46,147 nt of DNA from a virus (taxonomy: Duplodnaviria > Heunggongvirae > Uroviricota > Caudoviricetes). The stretch's first letter is position 1, and each line of letters opens with the position of its first letter. Made by a program: the position numbers and the translations under genes. The notes beneath the pieces are model-generated. The model searched no databases. It saw only the letters and a list, made by a program, of their open reading frames with translations, and was not told the DNA's origin. Shown piece after piece: positions 4,989 through 46,146 of this stretch. The stretch is taken from the IMG/VR virus record IMGVR_UViG_3300001528_000192, positions 128,001-174,147 of that record; one strand, written 5' to 3'.

Positions 4989-5152
4989 TTTATTTTTAGA
5001 AATCCACTACCACCACAGCGAGGACAATCTTCCTTTAGATTATCATCTATGAACTCAAAGAACGTTGAAATACCACAGGTAAATATCCCTGCTGCAACAT
5101 CATAAACCTTTCCTTTGCCCTTACATTTTGGGCATCTTACTATTTTACTCAT
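4985..5152 (-). CDS. DnaJ-type zinc-finger small protein
   Basis: CPKCKGKG and CPRCGGSG (CxxCxGxG); start moved to the ATG at 5152, which abuts the upstream stop. Confidence 0.75.
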   Translation of the reverse strand: MSKIVRCPKCKGKGKVYDVAAGIFTCGISTFFEFIDDNLKEDCPRCGGSGFLKIK

Positions 5153-5796
5153 CACTCCTTTACTACTTCCCAGTCTTCTGCAAACACATCTGAAACAGAA
5201 GGCACCCATGAATCTGCTCTGCCATCAGGGTTGATAATCAACATCTGATTAGTGTAGTCGATGTGTGGGTTCTCACGCTTCATCAAGATGTCCTTTGCAG
5301 ACTGAGGAAGTGATTGCATGTTAGGGATGATGTCACCTGTAATGTGACTTGGAACTTGCTTGACAACAAACAAGCCCTTGCCATTCCAACCCGCCCTGCG
5401 AATAGCAAGACCAGACTTCAAAGCCTCAATAGTCTTACCAAAGTTCATAGGAATTACCGTATTGGCATCAATTCCCATGTCAGCCATTCTTAAAGTTAGA
5501 GCCTTGTAGTACATTTCCATGCCTTGTGCTTGCTCTTTCATCAACTTATACTGATAGTCTCCAACTTTCTCGCGGAAACCATCCTTTGCGAGAGCTGTCT
5601 CCAACTTGTGCAGACGCTCATTCAACTCACTGCGCTCATCGAGCATTCTTCTCTGAAATTCTTCCATAATGTAAATGTCTTTAAAAGTTATTTTATAGTA
5701 TTCTTCCTTTTCGGGGTGCTTATGTATGGCATCTCTTAAAGCCTCTATTAAGAACTTAATATCTACTGGTTCATTATTCTCTTTTATTCCTAACAT
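5152..5796 (-). CDS. crAss001_48-like helical domain fused to a DUF2829/Tad2-like domain (putative signal-molecule sponge); alternative start at 5667
   Basis: MEEFQRRMLDERSELNERLHKL...QAQGMEMYYKAL, then MNFGKTIEALKSG..RRAGWNGKG...WVPSVSDVFAEDWEVV. Confidence 0.75.
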   Translation of the reverse strand: MLGIKENNEPVDIKFLIEALRDAIHKHPEKEEYYKITFKDIYIMEEFQRRMLDERSELNERLHKLETALAKDGFREKVGDYQYKLMKEQAQGMEMYYKALTLRMADMGIDANTVIPMNFGKTIEALKSGLAIRRAGWNGKGLFVVKQVPSHITGDIIPNMQSLPQSAKDILMKRENPHIDYTNQMLIINPDGRADSWVPSVSDVFAEDWEVVKE

Positions 5797-6317
5797 TATA
5801 AATCTAAAAAGTCTCTAACGTCAATATAATCAATTCCAAAATTCTCGGCGCACTTTTTATCGTAATCAGCAAAGTCTCCTGGTTTACCAGAGGCATCTCC
5901 TATCATAAGTTTATCGTTCTTACCATCCATAAGAGAATATTTGCAACAGAGAATCTCTAACATTCCTACATTGGGTTTTCTCCTGATGTCTCTCTTGTTC
6001 ATTGAGGGACAATACTCATAGTCTGCTATCAAGAGTTCATTCCCTATGTGATTTGCCAGATATAGATTTACGAACCTAGTTATAGCTACTAGTTTAGTTT
6101 GTACATCGTGTTCTGTAAAATACTTTCCAATTCCCCCTTGATTGGTAACAATAAATACAAACTTCAAATTGGGGAGCTGCTCAGCTATTTTATTGAGAAC
6201 AGGCAACTTAATCCTGAAGTCTGTAATGTCTTCTGGAAACTTCTTACCTGAAACAGTTTCAATTAAGGTACTATCCAAATCAATGAATAGTACCTTTTTA
6301 CTTGCAAAATCAATCAT
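5796..6317 (-). CDS. HAD-IIIA polynucleotide 3'-phosphatase-like hydrolase
   Basis: FIDLDSTLI, VTNQGG, RKPNVGM and MIGDASG motifs. Confidence 0.88.
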   Translation of the reverse strand: MIDFASKKVLFIDLDSTLIETVSGKKFPEDITDFRIKLPVLNKIAEQLPNLKFVFIVTNQGGIGKYFTEHDVQTKLVAITRFVNLYLANHIGNELLIADYEYCPSMNKRDIRRKPNVGMLEILCCKYSLMDGKNDKLMIGDASGKPGDFADYDKKCAENFGIDYIDVRDFLDL

Positions 6318-41693: not shown

Positions 41694-41830
41694 GCGTGTA
41701 TATTACCACAAATTGTACATTTATAAATTGCATACTCAGGAACATAGAGGGTATGTTTTCCTCTCTGTCTACACCTAGGACATAGCAATGTCTTGGTGAT
41801 TGGATAAACCGTTTCTTTCTTCGTAGCCAT
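41690..41830 (-). CDS. small zinc-ribbon protein
   Basis: MATKKETV...CPRC...CTIC; start moved from 41983 to 41830. Confidence 0.7.
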   Translation of the reverse strand: MATKKETVYPITKTLLCPRCRQRGKHTLYVPEYAIYKCTICGNIHA

Positions 41831-42284
41831 TAAAAAATGCATTAAAAGTTTTACGAATAATTCTATTGTTATGAATGTTATATTCTGGATTCCATCGTCC
41901 AGACCTATAAATCCATTTAATGTTAGAGGAGTTAATATCTTCAACAAGATATTTATTGGGAAGCGTATTGAACCCTCCAACATTTATAGTACCACCTCCT
42001 TCCAGATATAGGGCGTAATGATGACAAGTTCCAGAACCTACTATAGAGGTTCTCCTTGTGTTATTCTTAACTTTAGAATGAACTTCTGCAGAAACGCTAA
42101 CGTCATCCTTTAATTCTTTTGTAAAAATAAGTAACTTGTACTTTAGTCCTAATCTGTCAAAATGGAAAGCAATTAGATATGCAACAAAACAGCAACCACC
42201 ACTATTAATATGATATTTCCTATTAAGTTGCAAGCACAACTCATCTAACAATCTCTGTAAGCCATGAACATTTAAATCCCGCAT
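41775..42284 (-). CDS. hypothetical protein, possible papain/transglutaminase-like Cys-His enzyme
   Basis: INSGGCCFVA helix start and HHYALY strand; ends in TAG. Confidence 0.55.
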   Translation of the reverse strand: MRDLNVHGLQRLLDELCLQLNRKYHINSGGCCFVAYLIAFHFDRLGLKYKLLIFTKELKDDVSVSAEVHSKVKNNTRRTSIVGSGTCHHYALYLEGGGTINVGGFNTLPNKYLVEDINSSNIKWIYRSGRWNPEYNIHNNRIIRKTFNAFFNGYEERNGLSNHQDIAMS

Positions 42285-42541
42285 AACTTCCTAAGTGAAT
42301 CTAATTCCTCTCTGAACTCCTTTAAATATGTAGCTAGGTCAGTAACATCATGTTTGCATGATATTCTGTACTGAATTACTTTCTTTAGAGCAGACTCTAA
42401 GCTTATTCCGTAAGCTACATTCTTAAATTCCTGTCTAGCCTCCTTGCCCTTTGGACGTATCGTATACAAGAGTTCCAAGTCAAATACAGGACTAGATTCA
42501 GAAACTGGAGTCAATCGAAAATCCTTCTCTTCAATTGTCAT
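42272..42541 (-). CDS. hypothetical protein
   Basis: ORF track. Confidence 0.75.
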   Translation of the reverse strand: MTIEEKDFRLTPVSESSPVFDLELLYTIRPKGKEARQEFKNVAYGISLESALKKVIQYRISCKHDVTDLATYLKEFREELDSLRKLCGI

Positions 42542-42857
42542 TAGGATTGTAATTTATGTAAAACTCAGAACCAATATTAAAATCATTGAATATCTTTGGG
42601 CATTGCTCTATAGACATCTCTAATTTACCAGTATCTAAGTCATGTAGTTCAAGGATGTATAGATCATCCTTTTTAGAAACCACCGCCCTATAAACAGAAC
42701 TCTCTGTTCTTTCAGAAGTAAAAGTAACTTCCGCAGACTCTCCTTGAATTAGGGTAGATAAGGCTTTATTGAGAGCAAATGTGGATTTATATCCTTTGCA
42801 CTCCAATGATATATACCATCTACCTTTTACAACCTTTAGATAAATCTTATACTTCAT
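42531..42857 (-). CDS. hypothetical protein downstream of ACP
   Basis: ORF track; overlaps the ACP stop. Confidence 0.65.
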   Translation of the reverse strand: MKYKIYLKVVKGRWYISLECKGYKSTFALNKALSTLIQGESAEVTFTSERTESSVYRAVVSKKDDLYILELHDLDTGKLEMSIEQCPKIFNDFNIGSEFYINYNPNDN

Positions 42858-43095
42858 TCTTTACTAATGAATTAGTATGTTCAGCTATTTCACGGATGCT
42901 TTTCTTAAAGATGGAATGATCCTCCTCGTTAAACTTAACATCATACTTTGCTTCAAGATGCCCTACGAGATCTACAGTATCTAAACTGTCCATTCCAGCA
43001 TCATCTGCAAGATTACTGTTTCCATTCAACTGAACTGGATACCCTATATCCTCAGTGACATAATGAATTATATCAGAAATTATTTCTTCTACCAT
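42847..43095 (-). CDS. acyl carrier protein
   Basis: 82 aa, acidic; LADDAGMDSLDTVDL phosphopantetheine site; LEAKYDVKF. Confidence 0.9.
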   Translation of the reverse strand: MVEEIISDIIHYVTEDIGYPVQLNGNSNLADDAGMDSLDTVDLVGHLEAKYDVKFNEEDHSIFKKSIREIAEHTNSLVKNEV

Positions 43096-44264
43096 AGTTT
43101 AATTAATATTGAACTATTTGTACCTCCTAGCCCAAAGGAATTACTTAAAATGAACTTAGGAGGGTCAATTTCTACTAAACACTTGTGAATATTGAGAGAG
43201 AAGGAATTATCCTTGGTGTTGATGTTAGGTGGAACAAAGCCGGCCTTTCCGGATAGTATGGAATATACTACCTCAGAAGCCCCAGCTGCCCACATCTCGT
43301 GCCCAGTGAGAGCTTTAGTTGCACTTATAAGTGGTTTACGTTCATTGAATAATCCCAGTAAGGCTCCTGCCTCACTAAGATCCCCATCAACTGTACCAGT
43401 AGCATGAGCACTGACCACATCTACAACCTTAGGAGAGTACTCCCCAAGTGCTTTTTGCATACACCTCAATTCAGAAATCATATCACTCTTCGAGAGATGA
43501 TTAGAGGAGGTAGCACCATATCCGACTATTTCTCCATAAATTGGGAGATTCTGCTTTAATGCCCAACCCATTTCTGCCAAGATTAGACAAGCAGCCCCAC
43601 CACTAGGTACTAACCCATCTCTTTTTTCATCAAAGGGCTTAACTGCGTTCTCTGGTACATTAGATTTTGAGAAAGTTCCAATAGCATCAAAGGCAAAAGT
43701 GGAATCTGAATTAACCTCCTGACATCCTCCTGTAGCGATGACCTTAGAGAAACCACTAGCAATTAGATTATAACTAACTCCAATTGCATGTGCTCCAGAA
43801 GCACATGCTCCTCCAACACTAAAAGATGGGCCTTCTAGTCTGAAATGAGTACTTAGTACTGCTGTAGGATTAGAGGTTAGAGTCTTAAAGACATGAATTG
43901 CTCCTAATTTAGAAGTTCTCCCAAGCTTAGAATACGATTCTATTGCCTCTGCCATAGACTGTGAACTACTGTCGTTTCCGATAATTAGTCCACAGTTCAT
44001 TGGAGGGCATCCAAGGTATGCGTCCTCTAAAGCTTCACTTAGTGCTTTATACATATACTCAGTCTGAGGAGCCATATACCTCTTGATGTGTTGAGGTATT
44101 TCTGTTGGAGTAGGAACAATTCCAGTAAGTCTAGAATTAAATCCTGCTCTAGACTGGTCTATTCCAATTCCACAGAAGCCCTTCTTTAGAGATTCTGAGA
44201 CTTCTTTTTTGTTAGATCCTATGCTGGAATAAATACCCATTCCAACAATAACTACTCTCCTCAT
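43089..44264 (-). CDS. beta-ketoacyl-ACP synthase (FabB/FabF-type ketosynthase)
   Basis: RRVVIVGMG, ACASG (Cys), AHATGT (His), KALTGH (His), PFDEKRDG, SNSFGLGG; ATG start at 44264. Confidence 0.93.
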   Translation of the reverse strand: MRRVVIVGMGIYSSIGSNKKEVSESLKKGFCGIGIDQSRAGFNSRLTGIVPTPTEIPQHIKRYMAPQTEYMYKALSEALEDAYLGCPPMNCGLIIGNDSSSQSMAEAIESYSKLGRTSKLGAIHVFKTLTSNPTAVLSTHFRLEGPSFSVGGACASGAHAIGVSYNLIASGFSKVIATGGCQEVNSDSTFAFDAIGTFSKSNVPENAVKPFDEKRDGLVPSGGAACLILAEMGWALKQNLPIYGEIVGYGATSSNHLSKSDMISELRCMQKALGEYSPKVVDVVSAHATGTVDGDLSEAGALLGLFNERKPLISATKALTGHEMWAAGASEVVYSILSGKAGFVPPNINTKDNSFSLNIHKCLVEIDPPKFILSNSFGLGGTNSSILIKLW

Positions 44265-44269
44265 AAGTC

Positions 44270-44398
44270 TCAAGCAGAAGCTGCTGTTCTCTGATTTATT
44301 CCACCAGGACGAGTTAATCCTGCTTTCTCTCTTTCTGGGAGTTTATCCCACCATGCTTGTGCAGCCTTAAGATTTGCAAGTTTCTTTTTATACTTCAT
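44270..44398 (-). CDS. small basic protein (42 aa, not in ORF track)
   Basis: MKYKKKLANLKAAQAWWDKLPEREKAGLTRPGGINQRTAASA*; exactly fills the gap. Confidence 0.7.
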   Translation of the reverse strand: MKYKKKLANLKAAQAWWDKLPEREKAGLTRPGGINQRTAASA

Positions 44399-44399
44399 A

Positions 44400-45209
44400 T
44401 TATATTACTTTAAGCATTGTTACATTTTCAGGAAGGTTCTCCCAATCCTTATAAGAGTTAGTTATCCATACATGATTAAAATTCTTGGATAGATTCTCAA
44501 TACCCTTCGGGTTAACCATGTGAACTACAGAGATATTAAGCTTCTCTTTGGATACTCCTAACTTCCCAAGAGCCTCTGCAATACCACAGAAAGTTCCACC
44601 TCCATCACATAGATCATCCACAATCATTAATGGTTGATTTCCGATTTTTTCTGGATTGTCTACCTTGATTTCGAGTATCTTGCCAGTAGCTAGATCACGA
44701 ACCTTGCTGCAAGAGATAGAGTTCTCACTGAAATACCCATAACGCTCAACTGCTCCAGCATCTGGCAGGACTAATTGATAATTAGTCATCCAGTTTTCTG
44801 GACGTGTAAGCTCTTCAGGATATAAGGCTCTGAACTTATTCCCAAGTCGATAGTCATATATCACGTCTGAGTGAGGCTCCAAGACAGCAATATTTTCTGC
44901 ATTAGAGTTGCTAAGCATCTTTACTATTACCTTAAGAGTAAAAGGACGATTGAAGTCCATAACTCTATCCATCCTCATTCCCATGAGATAGAAGATGTCA
45001 ACATCATAATAGACATCATGTCTATCAAGAATGTCAAGAACCTGAGTTACGATAAATAGTTCCTCAGCATTAGTGATTCTACACTTCACACAGACTTGAT
45101 CTTTGTGACTAAATTCTCCTAGAGAGATTTGTACCTCTCCATCAGGAAATCTAGAAATAGTATATTTAATGTCACTATCTTCTAGACGAACTAAATTTAT
45201 ACATTTCAT
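44400..45209 (-). CDS. PRPP-synthetase-like protein (NARP1 Adps-like ADPR-PP synthetase)
   Basis: FPDGE, YLMGMRMDR, PDAGA and IVDDLCDGGGTF motifs; near a NAMPT-like gene. Confidence 0.85.
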   Translation of the reverse strand: MKCINLVRLEDSDIKYTISRFPDGEVQISLGEFSHKDQVCVKCRITNAEELFIVTQVLDILDRHDVYYDVDIFYLMGMRMDRVMDFNRPFTLKVIVKMLSNSNAENIAVLEPHSDVIYDYRLGNKFRALYPEELTRPENWMTNYQLVLPDAGAVERYGYFSENSISCSKVRDLATGKILEIKVDNPEKIGNQPLMIVDDLCDGGGTFCGIAEALGKLGVSKEKLNISVVHMVNPKGIENLSKNFNHVWITNSYKDWENLPENVTMLKVI

Positions 45210-45691
45210 AACTTGTATATAAATAGATTAATTAAATCATCCTTAAATATTTCTTGGATCATAGGATAGACTACACCGTCCCAATCTCCACCAGCTAAAC
45301 CACAACCAAGCTTATAAGGAATGCCTATAGAGTGGATGTCCATTCGCAGAGCACGGTGTTTTAATTCCAACAGAGCTAGTTTGAGGGCATGATAATCAGT
45401 ATGTCTCCCGTTAGCATTTGGAGCTACGGCTTCTGTAAAGGAGTATTCTCCGAATAGATTAGCCACATGAGGAATAGATTCATCCCCCGTTACGCAGATT
45501 TGACAGTTCCCCAAAAGGGCTCTTGACTTGTTCTTCTCATTGCAATAATGGAGGTACTGATCATATACTATAGGCCATTTATTCCTAATAGCTTTGGCAA
45601 TACCACCTCCCATTACTCCTAGACAGTTAGTCTGGTGTGCAATGAGGGGCAGATTTGACTTAAGTAAATCACCATTAACAATTTCTATCAT
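45206..45691 (-). CDS. macrodomain protein (ADP-ribose binding/hydrolase)
   Basis: GDLL, HQTNCLGVMGGGIA and PYKLGCGLAGGDW motifs. Confidence 0.92.
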   Translation of the reverse strand: MIEIVNGDLLKSNLPLIAHQTNCLGVMGGGIAKAIRNKWPIVYDQYLHYCNEKNKSRALLGNCQICVTGDESIPHVANLFGEYSFTEAVAPNANGRHTDYHALKLALLELKHRALRMDIHSIGIPYKLGCGLAGGDWDGVVYPMIQEIFKDDLINLFIYKL

Positions 45692-46146
45692 TTCAATGTA
45701 GAGTTTACACGTTCACGAATTTCGGAAAGAGAATAGTCTCTCTTCAAATTACTGTTCACAAAGACTGGCTCCAAGCACCCAAGTGCTTCATGTGCTTCAT
45801 CCTGCTGATCGTAGGCAACATACTTACCGTCTTCCTTCTCAACCCTTATAAGACCTTTAAGAGAGTTCTTAGTTCCATCGTCAGTCTTTGGATGCTTGAA
45901 GATTTCTCTAAGTTCTCCATTGATTTTACAAGCGGTTGCCTTAACAGCAAATCCAAGAGAATCTCTACTTTTGAACTGGTAAGTGAACGAACCTACACCA
46001 AGTACAAGATTGCAAGCTGCCATATGAGCACTTTCCAATCTAGTATAGATGTCTCTCTGACGTTCTAGCGTAATAGAGTCACCATAGAGTAGTCCAACCT
46101 TGGTACTTGGATAACGATAATCGTTTACTGTAGTGTTCCAACCGAA
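45688..46146 (-). CDS. nicotinamide phosphoribosyltransferase-like protein (NARP1 Namat-like), C-terminal part
   Basis: Frame open to the window edge; GLLYGDSIT, LGVGSFTYQ, RDSLGFAVKAT and KHPKTDDGTKNSLKG motifs. Confidence 0.9.
   Translation of the reverse strand, partial: FGWNTTVNDYRYPSTKVGLLYGDSITLERQRDIYTRLESAHMAACNLVLGVGSFTYQFKSRDSLGFAVKATACKINGELREIFKHPKTDDGTKNSLKGLIRVEKEDGKYVAYDQQDEAHEALGCLEPVFVNSNLKRDYSLSEIRERVNSTLK

Follow-up and report, generated by a model that had tools for sequence, protein, structure and literature searches.

In rhizobia a dedicated ketosynthase (KS) and acyl carrier protein (ACP), NodE and NodF, make a special acyl chain with the help of housekeeping enzymes; NodE is FabF-like, and the acyltransferase NodA takes its product. 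ApeR, a ketosynthase of aryl-polyene synthesis, is a homodimeric FabB-like enzyme that works without a chain-length factor (PMC8358021). In phages, auxiliary genes of the fabF/acpP(/fabG) type and ACP modules have been listed for roseobacter prophages (PMC8224337) and Flavobacterium jumbophages (PMC13573597). Here we describe a KS gene and an ACP gene that lie, together with the gene for a 108-residue protein (p108), in the final 46 kb of the 174,147-bp IMG/VR virus record IMGVR_UViG_3300001528_000192 (CheckV completeness 100%). This stretch of 46,147 nucleotides, positions 128,001 to 174,147 of the record, is referred to as the window. Judged from sequence comparison, KS-ACP-p108 is an accessory cassette of a ~170-kb crAss-like gut phage lineage and has been under purifying selection since its capture. 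The genes of the cassette are the following.

43089-44264, minus strand: ketosynthase (KS), 391 aa, FabB/ApeR-like, with a Cys-His-His triad, a GLGG gate loop and a TAG stop codon
42847-43095, minus strand: acyl carrier protein (ACP), 82 aa, PF00550, with Ser37 in GMDSLD
42531-42857, minus strand: p108, 108 aa, a small beta-barrel protein in its AF2 model, found only in phages and translationally coupled to the ACP gene

The KS contains both Pfam domains of a ketosynthase, PF00109 at 95.5 bits (E=5e-27) and PF02801 at 71.6 bits (E=7e-20), each with a cut-off of 20.8. Its best NCBIfam model is FabB (NF005935) at 274.6 bits, below the 630-bit equivalog cut-off, while the FabF equivalog TIGR03150 scored 216.9 bits, below its cut-off of 493.75; no PHROG family was matched. 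Scores against PDB structures were 233 bits for FabB, 154 for FabF and 149 for the ApeR homologue PpApeR (4EWG). Both sets of scores make the KS FabB-like rather than FabF-like. The motifs GNDSS, RDGLVPSGGAA and TGHEMWAAGASE, quoted in a preliminary description of the locus, are all present in it. Cys157, His290, Lys320 and His325 (numbered on the 394-aa open reading frame) are invariant in alignment A1. When 27 phage KS, 28 Bacteroidota cluster KS, 13 FabB and 4 FabF sequences were mapped onto E. coli FabB, the residues C163, H298, H333, K328, T300 and T302 (FabB numbering) were found in 27/27 phage KS, and F201 and D202 were likewise invariant. This confirms the intact Cys-His-His ketosynthase that was first noted.

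The ACP matches PF00550 with 31.9 bits against a cut-off of 20.8, and also phrog_5934, annotated 'acyl carrier protein'. It is acidic, with 18 D+E against 6 K+R, and the serine for phosphopantetheine attachment, Ser37 in GMDSLD, is conserved in all phage ACPs aligned. The DSL phosphopantetheinylation site and the overlap with the KS gene were correctly called in the preliminary description; the ATG of the ACP gene and the KS stop overlap by 7 nt. No second ACP is found in the 174-kb phage genome. With both KS Pfam domains, the catalytic residues and the carrier serine present, and with a synteny shared among phages (below), the module is intact and phage-borne, as had been proposed.

At the gate the phage enzymes depart from the cellular ones. 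The gate loops of FabF and FabB admit acyl-ACP, and the backbone amide of the gate Phe is part of the oxyanion hole; D265A and D265N impair the reaction with long-chain probes, while F400A increases probe access (PMC7138838). We looked for a GFGG loop with Phe392/400 together with Asp265. All 27 phage KS have GLGG and Ser265 instead, whereas the cellular relatives keep GFGG. The three positions that differ are these.

FabB F392 (GFGG loop): Leu in 27/27 phage KS; Phe in 28/28 Bacteroidota cluster KS, 13/13 FabB and 4/4 FabF
FabB D265: Ser in 27/27 phage KS; Asn in 28/28 Bacteroidota cluster KS; Asp in FabB and FabF
FabB P272 (loop 2): Ser in 23/27 phage KS; Pro in 27/28 Bacteroidota cluster KS and in FabB and FabF

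The aryl-stacking pair of AbApeR is Tyr135/Phe202, corresponding to Met138/Phe201 in EcFabB. Its Phe is kept in 27/27 phage KS, and the position of Tyr135 is occupied by Leu in 24/27 and otherwise by Met. Met is also found there in the Bacteroidota members, and Tyr135 may be specific to the proteobacterial enzymes. Taken as a whole, the phage KS looks catalytically intact but differently gated, and the F392L, D265S and P272S changes suggest a different or relaxed admission of substrate compared with the cellular enzymes. The residues at FabB positions 62, 63 and 127, which we take to be an ACP-docking patch, differ in the phage KS as well.

The nearest cellular KS are Bacteroidota proteins of 405-406 aa with 40-47% identity. 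They are encoded in clusters that consist, in this order, of a TAL/histidine ammonia-lyase, a ketoreductase (KR), the KS, an ACP, an LpxL-like acyltransferase, one or more ApeP-like dehydratases (DH), a thioesterase and a second KS (KS2); a DarB-like FabH and a halogenase are present in some of them as well. From this gene content the clusters are of flexirubin or aryl-polyene type, and the counterpart of ApeR in them is the KS after the KR. Such clusters are also found in gut and rumen Bacteroidales, among them B. fragilis, Prevotella, Alistipes and Paludibacteraceae. One B. fragilis genome (G001) has two ApeR-like KS paralogues (L034/L098 and L095), which are 55% identical and fall in different Bacteroidales subclades.

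Two quick-search IQ-TREE runs with SH-aLRT support, in which Bacteroidales FabF served as the outgroup, gave the same picture. The 27 phage KS form one clade (100%). Together with the Bacteroidota cluster KS (95-97%) and a second small clade of viral KS (99%), it makes up a superclade supported at 99-100%. This superclade is separate from the proteobacterial FabB, including that of E. coli, from Bacteroidales FabF and from the second KS of the clusters. Within it the phage KS are a separate deep branch and are not nested within gut Bacteroidales. The ACP agrees with this affinity. The window ACP scored 32.8 bits with a profile of the KS-adjacent cluster ACP, 24.8 with that of the second cluster ACP and 20.9 with that of housekeeping AcpP, and the corresponding ranges for five phage ACPs were 29-42, 14-27 and 17-23 bits; as the profiles differ in depth (30, 12 and 4 sequences, respectively), these scores serve as supporting evidence only. 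The preliminary description had pointed to a resemblance of the KS motifs to those of the Bacteroidota aryl-polyene/flexirubin clade and had proposed a phylogenetic check of both proteins. By gene context and phylogeny that resemblance holds, the KS standing apart from FabF, and with it the probable descent of the KS-ACP pair from Bacteroidota clusters of aryl-polyene/flexirubin type. Most simply, the pair would have been captured once, long ago, and then inherited vertically within the phages.

The second small viral clade comprises L110-L113, IMG/VR contigs of 63-107 kb with the KS at about 5001-6250. In these contigs the order is reversed, ACP then KS, and the pair lies beside a giant tape-measure-like gene and a primase. 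Their KS form their own clade in the superclade and keep GFGG, which suggests an independent capture of a polyene-type pair.

Relatives of the window KS fall into six clusters with 81-92% identity and twenty with 50-59%, which derive from gut and other metagenomes on contigs of up to 171 kb; no cellular KS homologue exceeds 47%. Every locus retrieved has the same order of KS, ACP, a p108 homologue (107-122 aa) and a homologue of the next gene, p89 (89-92 aa), with a helicase and DnaB downstream. A scan of IMG/VR with the single KS protein alone gave no match, but an alignment-based scan later returned two close genomes of ~170-175 kb with the same junctions. Between the window and the related locus L001 (dS ~0.8-1.2), dN/dS was 0.10 for the KS, 0.05 for the ACP, 0.095 for p108 and 0.06 for the 42-aa protein p42 encoded upstream of the KS. 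A survey of synteny and a dN/dS analysis had both been put forward in the preliminary description, which regarded a chimera with host DNA, or presence in a single genome under relaxed selection, as grounds for abandoning its proposal. The KS-ACP-p108 order recurs in independent ~170-kb gut-phage assemblies, and values of 0.05-0.10 indicate purifying selection; both results contradict those grounds. KS-ACP-p108 is not an assembly chimera.

All genes of the region are on the minus strand, and the four open reading frames lie where they were first placed. The neighbours of the cassette are the following.

45688-46146, minus strand: NAMPT-like gene, cut by the contig end, member of the NAD module
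45206-45691, minus strand: macro-domain gene between the NAMPT-like and Prs-like genes
44400-45209, minus strand: Prs-like gene, member of the NAD module
44270-44398, minus strand: p42, a 42-aa basic protein, flanking backbone gene outside the cassette
42272-42541, minus strand: p89, 89 aa, backbone gene downstream of the cassette
41775-42284, minus strand: p169, 169 aa, backbone gene

Junctions in this region are tight. The KS starts at the ATG at 44264 (391 aa) and not at the TTG at 44273 listed for the 394-aa open reading frame, because all relatives begin at MRRVV in alignment A1; this leaves 5 bases between the p42 stop and the KS ATG. The ATG of p108 overlaps the end of the ACP gene by 11 nt, and the ATG of p89 overlaps the end of p108 by 11 nt. 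Scans for promoters and terminators found sites no more often than in shuffled sequence. The window KS ends at a TAG (43089-43091) with a TAA two codons on, while all relatives checked stop at TGA; no in-frame TAG occurs within the cassette genes. The genome has 22 tRNAs, one of which carries a CTA (amber-reading) anticodon (G000:C1:39763-39835, outside the window) and fits a TAG recoding proposed for this phage.

Relatives without the KS define the limits of the insert. In MT835492.1, Prs is followed by p42 and then directly by p89, and MT836666.1 has NAMPT, Prs, p42, p89 and p169. KS, ACP and p108 were not detected in MT836666.1, nor was p108 in MT835492.1. Since these relatives keep the backbone genes, the insert is KS-ACP-p108, and p42, p89 and p169 belong to the backbone. 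The preliminary description had named the 42-aa open reading frame as a flank of the KS-ACP pair. It is a real gene, as its dN/dS of 0.06 indicates, but we rejected it as a member; it adjoins p89 in MT835492.1 and is kept in MT836666.1 too. We also considered p169 as the missing acyl-transfer or release enzyme of the cassette. It has a papain-like pattern, with an invariant GGCC (Cys31/32) at a helix start, His89 at a strand start and an invariant Asn101, and its AF2 model (pLDDT 81.5) gave weak fold matches (Z 3.2-4.0) to protein-glutaminase, arylamine N-acetyltransferase and GdmF. This candidate was rejected, as MT836666.1, which lacks the KS, also has p169.

The module does lie immediately downstream of NARP1-like genes, as first described. 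The Prs-like, macro-domain and NAMPT-like genes found upstream together are, from their sequences, a NARP1-like NAD module, which is treated here as context only. The phage NAD genes and NrdD resemble Crassvirales copies (DAC15/17, cr85_1, cr111_1, IAS virus). The macro-domain protein (45206-45691, minus strand) gave 59.9 bits against the DarG antitoxin model, in the N-terminal portion of that model, and also matches phrog_335; in relatives the same position is held by a protein of ~143 aa with no Pfam match on record. A functional tie between the cassette and this NAD counter-defence locus was rejected. The cassette is found without nearby NAMPT/Prs in L006, L103 and L104, and the NAD genes without the cassette in DAC15, MT835492.1 and MT836666.1; constant co-occurrence with Adps/Namat-like genes was not found. 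As each is found alone, their adjacency in the window is not a functional unit. L006 (Logan contig ERR14149359, 6316-7568) is a P0013-type phage variant that keeps p43-p101-KS-ACP-p107 and has no called NAMPT, macro or Prs gene.

The third gene of the cassette, p108, adjoins the ACP gene in all five KS-bearing lineages aligned (the window, L001, L003, L103 and L104). Its conserved motifs are KGRWY, KGYK, QCPK and EFYINY, and its invariant residues include G12, W14, Y15, K21-K24, S82, C86, D92, E98, F99 and Y103. Relatives are restricted to phages: a search of 5.8 billion proteins gave 23 of them, and one of 1.84 billion gave 16 representative clusters. Pfam, NCBIfam and PHROG gave no match. 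The AF2 model (pLDDT 87.6) is a small beta barrel with two short helices. Its comparison with PDB structures gave no informative match (best Z 4.4, Rpb8-like barrels), and an Atlas structure search returned nothing useful. Among viral structures (BFVD) only uncharacterised phage proteins were matched, the best being one of a Cellulophaga phage (TM 0.65). Because it is constantly coupled to the ACP gene, p108 is the foremost candidate for a dedicated partner or an acceptor, and it is likely to be a specific partner of the KS-ACP pair. In other branches of the phage clade (L003, L103 and L104) a further small protein, p101 (89-101 aa), is encoded directly before the KS; it is absent from the branch of the window. 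The idea that p101 and p108 are paralogues is unsupported (hhalign probability 5%), and the 101-aa matches of the p108 profile search are divergent p108 proteins, not p101.

The preliminary description saw no phosphopantetheinyl transferase (PPTase), acyltransferase, ketoreductase or dehydratase in the window and concluded that host machinery would be needed. Both statements extend to the whole 174,147-bp genome, in which a Pfam search found no PF01648 (ACPS, PPTase), PF00698 (Acyl_transf_1, FabD family), PF07977 (FabA/Z), PF13561 (adh_short_C2, FabG family), PF00583 (GNAT), PF01553 (PlsC-type acyltransferase) or PF03061 (4HBT thioesterase). A tblastn search of the phage genome revealed no further aryl-polyene cluster protein. 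In the absence of these partner enzymes, the host would have to supply activation, malonyl loading, reduction and dehydration. Among 301 sampled Bacteroidales species, 92 (~31%) have an orthologue of the cluster KS, taken as at least 54% identity to the B. fragilis copy, and a clean gap sets these orthologues off from FabF-level matches at 40% or less. Many possible hosts would therefore lack the KR and DH of the cluster. An RpoD-like sigma factor of the phage (window 12354-13208, minus strand) gave no host signal, as its top 120 matches were all phage copies. It has more than 120 near-identical clusters (94-100%), one of them on 226 contigs, and contigs that carry it reach 165-179 kb; from the abundance of these clusters, the phage group is very common in public metagenomes.

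Our tentative reading, which we regard as quite possible, is that the cassette provides an active, phage-private KS and carrier that, with the help of host AcpS, FabD and reductive enzymes, assemble a chain on the phage ACP destined for an unspecified acceptor. Host AcpS would turn the phage ACP into its holo form, and host FabD would load it with malonyl. The KS, presumably a standalone FabB/ApeR-like homodimer, would take an acyl or aryl-enoyl primer on Cys157 and condense it with malonyl-ACP. The beta-keto product would then be processed by host FabG/FabZ or by the KR/DH of a host cluster, and acyl or polyenoyl chains would end up as a pool held on the phage ACP. Several points weigh against this. 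p108 has no recognisable fold match in Pfam, NCBIfam, PHROG, PDB or BFVD, and neither an acceptor nor a release enzyme was found. The altered gate may just as well reflect a weakened condensation. The stem branch of the phage KS is long (0.8-0.9), and both trees are quick searches with SH-aLRT support only, in which the branching order of the three subclades is not resolved. With an orthologue in only 92/301 sampled Bacteroidales species, the enzymes of a host cluster may be unavailable.

A rather unlikely alternative is that the pair is a plug-in booster of the host aryl-polyene/flexirubin pigment pathway, in which an extra fast KS and carrier would raise the amount of protective outer-membrane polyene lipid and so keep the infected cell fit, for example under oxidative stress, through a long infection of the crAss type. 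The phage pair is homologous to that of the cluster, but the phage KS clade is deep, has 40-47% identity to any cellular KS and is not nested in gut Bacteroidales. Added ApeR raises aryl-polyene throughput in vitro (PMC8358021), and aryl polyenes are reported to protect against oxidative stress (PMC13532178). The phage gate residues, however, differ from those of every cellular cluster KS, and the position aligned to the aryl-stacking Tyr135 of AbApeR (Met138 in EcFabB) is Leu or Met. The pathway is found in ~31% of sampled Bacteroidales species, which leaves most of them without it, and the pair is accompanied by proteins found only in phages (p108 and, in other lineages, p101).

It appears improbable that the cassette is a metabolic sink or counter-defence tool that drains or diverts malonyl or acyl groups, through malonyl-ACP decarboxylation or sequestration on a private ACP. 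Variants of this explanation, to which we give the same low standing, would have the cassette shut down or bypass a regulated host fatty-acid synthesis or serve as a decoy where a defence senses or targets ACP or fatty-acid synthesis. The cassette does lie in an accessory early region beside counter-defence genes, yet its position beside the NAD genes is not conserved, and literature searches found no defence system that targets ACP or fatty-acid synthesis. The genome encodes no downstream enzyme, the gate Phe that helps to order substrate entry is lost, and a FabB is reported to be able to initiate synthesis via malonyl-ACP decarboxylation (PMC10869286). Against this, a mere sink or decoy would have no need of the full condensation triad and the malonyl-binding Thr residues, all of which are strictly conserved.

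Equally doubtful in our view is a phage-specific minimal pathway formed by KS-ACP-p108 (with p101 elsewhere), in which a KS with a relaxed gate would use malonyl-ACP for self-priming and assemble a lipid or polyene chain on the phage carrier. The recipient of the chain would be a phage or host protein, with the invariant Cys86 of p108 as a candidate site; otherwise the chain would leave as a small molecule with a part in host takeover or counter-defence. Such a scheme, if true, would be an undescribed way for phages to make lipids or lipidated proteins. Finally, it is barely credible that the module is a chimera of the assembly with host DNA or a passenger gene in decay. Only a G+C of 0.405 in 43001-44000, slightly above most of the window (0.32-0.40), might point that way, and against it stand identical junctions in many independent assemblies and two IMG/VR genomes, cellular homologues that never exceed 47% identity, strong purifying selection and cassette genes that overlap their phage neighbours.

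The crAss-like phages are among the most abundant human gut viruses, and a role is known for almost none of their accessory genes. In this case two genes taken from polyene pigment synthesis, a branch of secondary metabolism in the host phylum, have long been kept under selection by a widespread phage lineage, which points to a phage that interferes with the lipid or pigment chemistry of its host or makes use of it. The phage KS is also a natural gating-loop variant (GLGG, with Ser for Asp265), and as such bears on how ketosynthases admit their substrates.

Among described systems, the ApeR-type KS and ACP of Bacteroidota clusters, with A. baumannii ApeR and P. phymatum 4EWG as relatives of solved structure (PMC8358021), have the same FabB-like KS with a Cys-His-His triad. 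A small ACP directly follows the KS in these clusters as in the phage; the KS fall in the same supported superclade, and the phage ACP fits the cluster ACP best. The phage differs from them in having only KS and ACP in its 174-kb genome, without TAL, KR, DH, acyltransferase, thioesterase or a KS-CLF pair. Its KS has 40-47% identity to theirs, with GLGG, Ser265 and loss of the loop-2 Pro (P272S in 23/27) in all phage copies, and the phage-only p108 is joined to the pair. The phage KS scores lower against the proteobacterial ApeR structure 4EWG (149 bits) than against FabB (233 bits). E. coli/Vibrio FabB (KAS I) is its best profile and PDB match, with a full-length alignment in which all catalytic residues are shared; it is set apart from FabB by a score of 274.6 bits against the 630 cut-off, a separate clade and altered gate residues.

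The logic of NodE/NodF would be analogous to that of the phage pair, in that a dedicated KS and carrier depend on housekeeping FabD, FabG, FabZ and AcpS. The phage KS is FabB-like and not FabF-like, however, and no acceptor was found as a counterpart to NodA. One Bacteroidota relative is named 'Nodulation protein E' by a source. The phage fabF/acpP and ACP modules are likewise phage-borne condensing enzymes and/or ACPs without a full pathway, with roles that are predicted only; they differ in being FabF/AcpP-type or an ACP alone and in belonging to other phage groups. The preliminary description knew of no characterised phage KS-ACP system. This stands as far as characterisation is concerned, but genes of the fabF/acpP type had already been listed (PMC8224337, PMC13573597). 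In literature searches no paper linked crAss-like phages with a ketosynthase, and the sole paper with both 'crAss-like' and 'acyl carrier' concerned freshwater jumbophages. What is new here is the polyene-cluster ancestry of the pair, its crAss-like carrier, the clade-wide gate signature and p108 as its likely partner.

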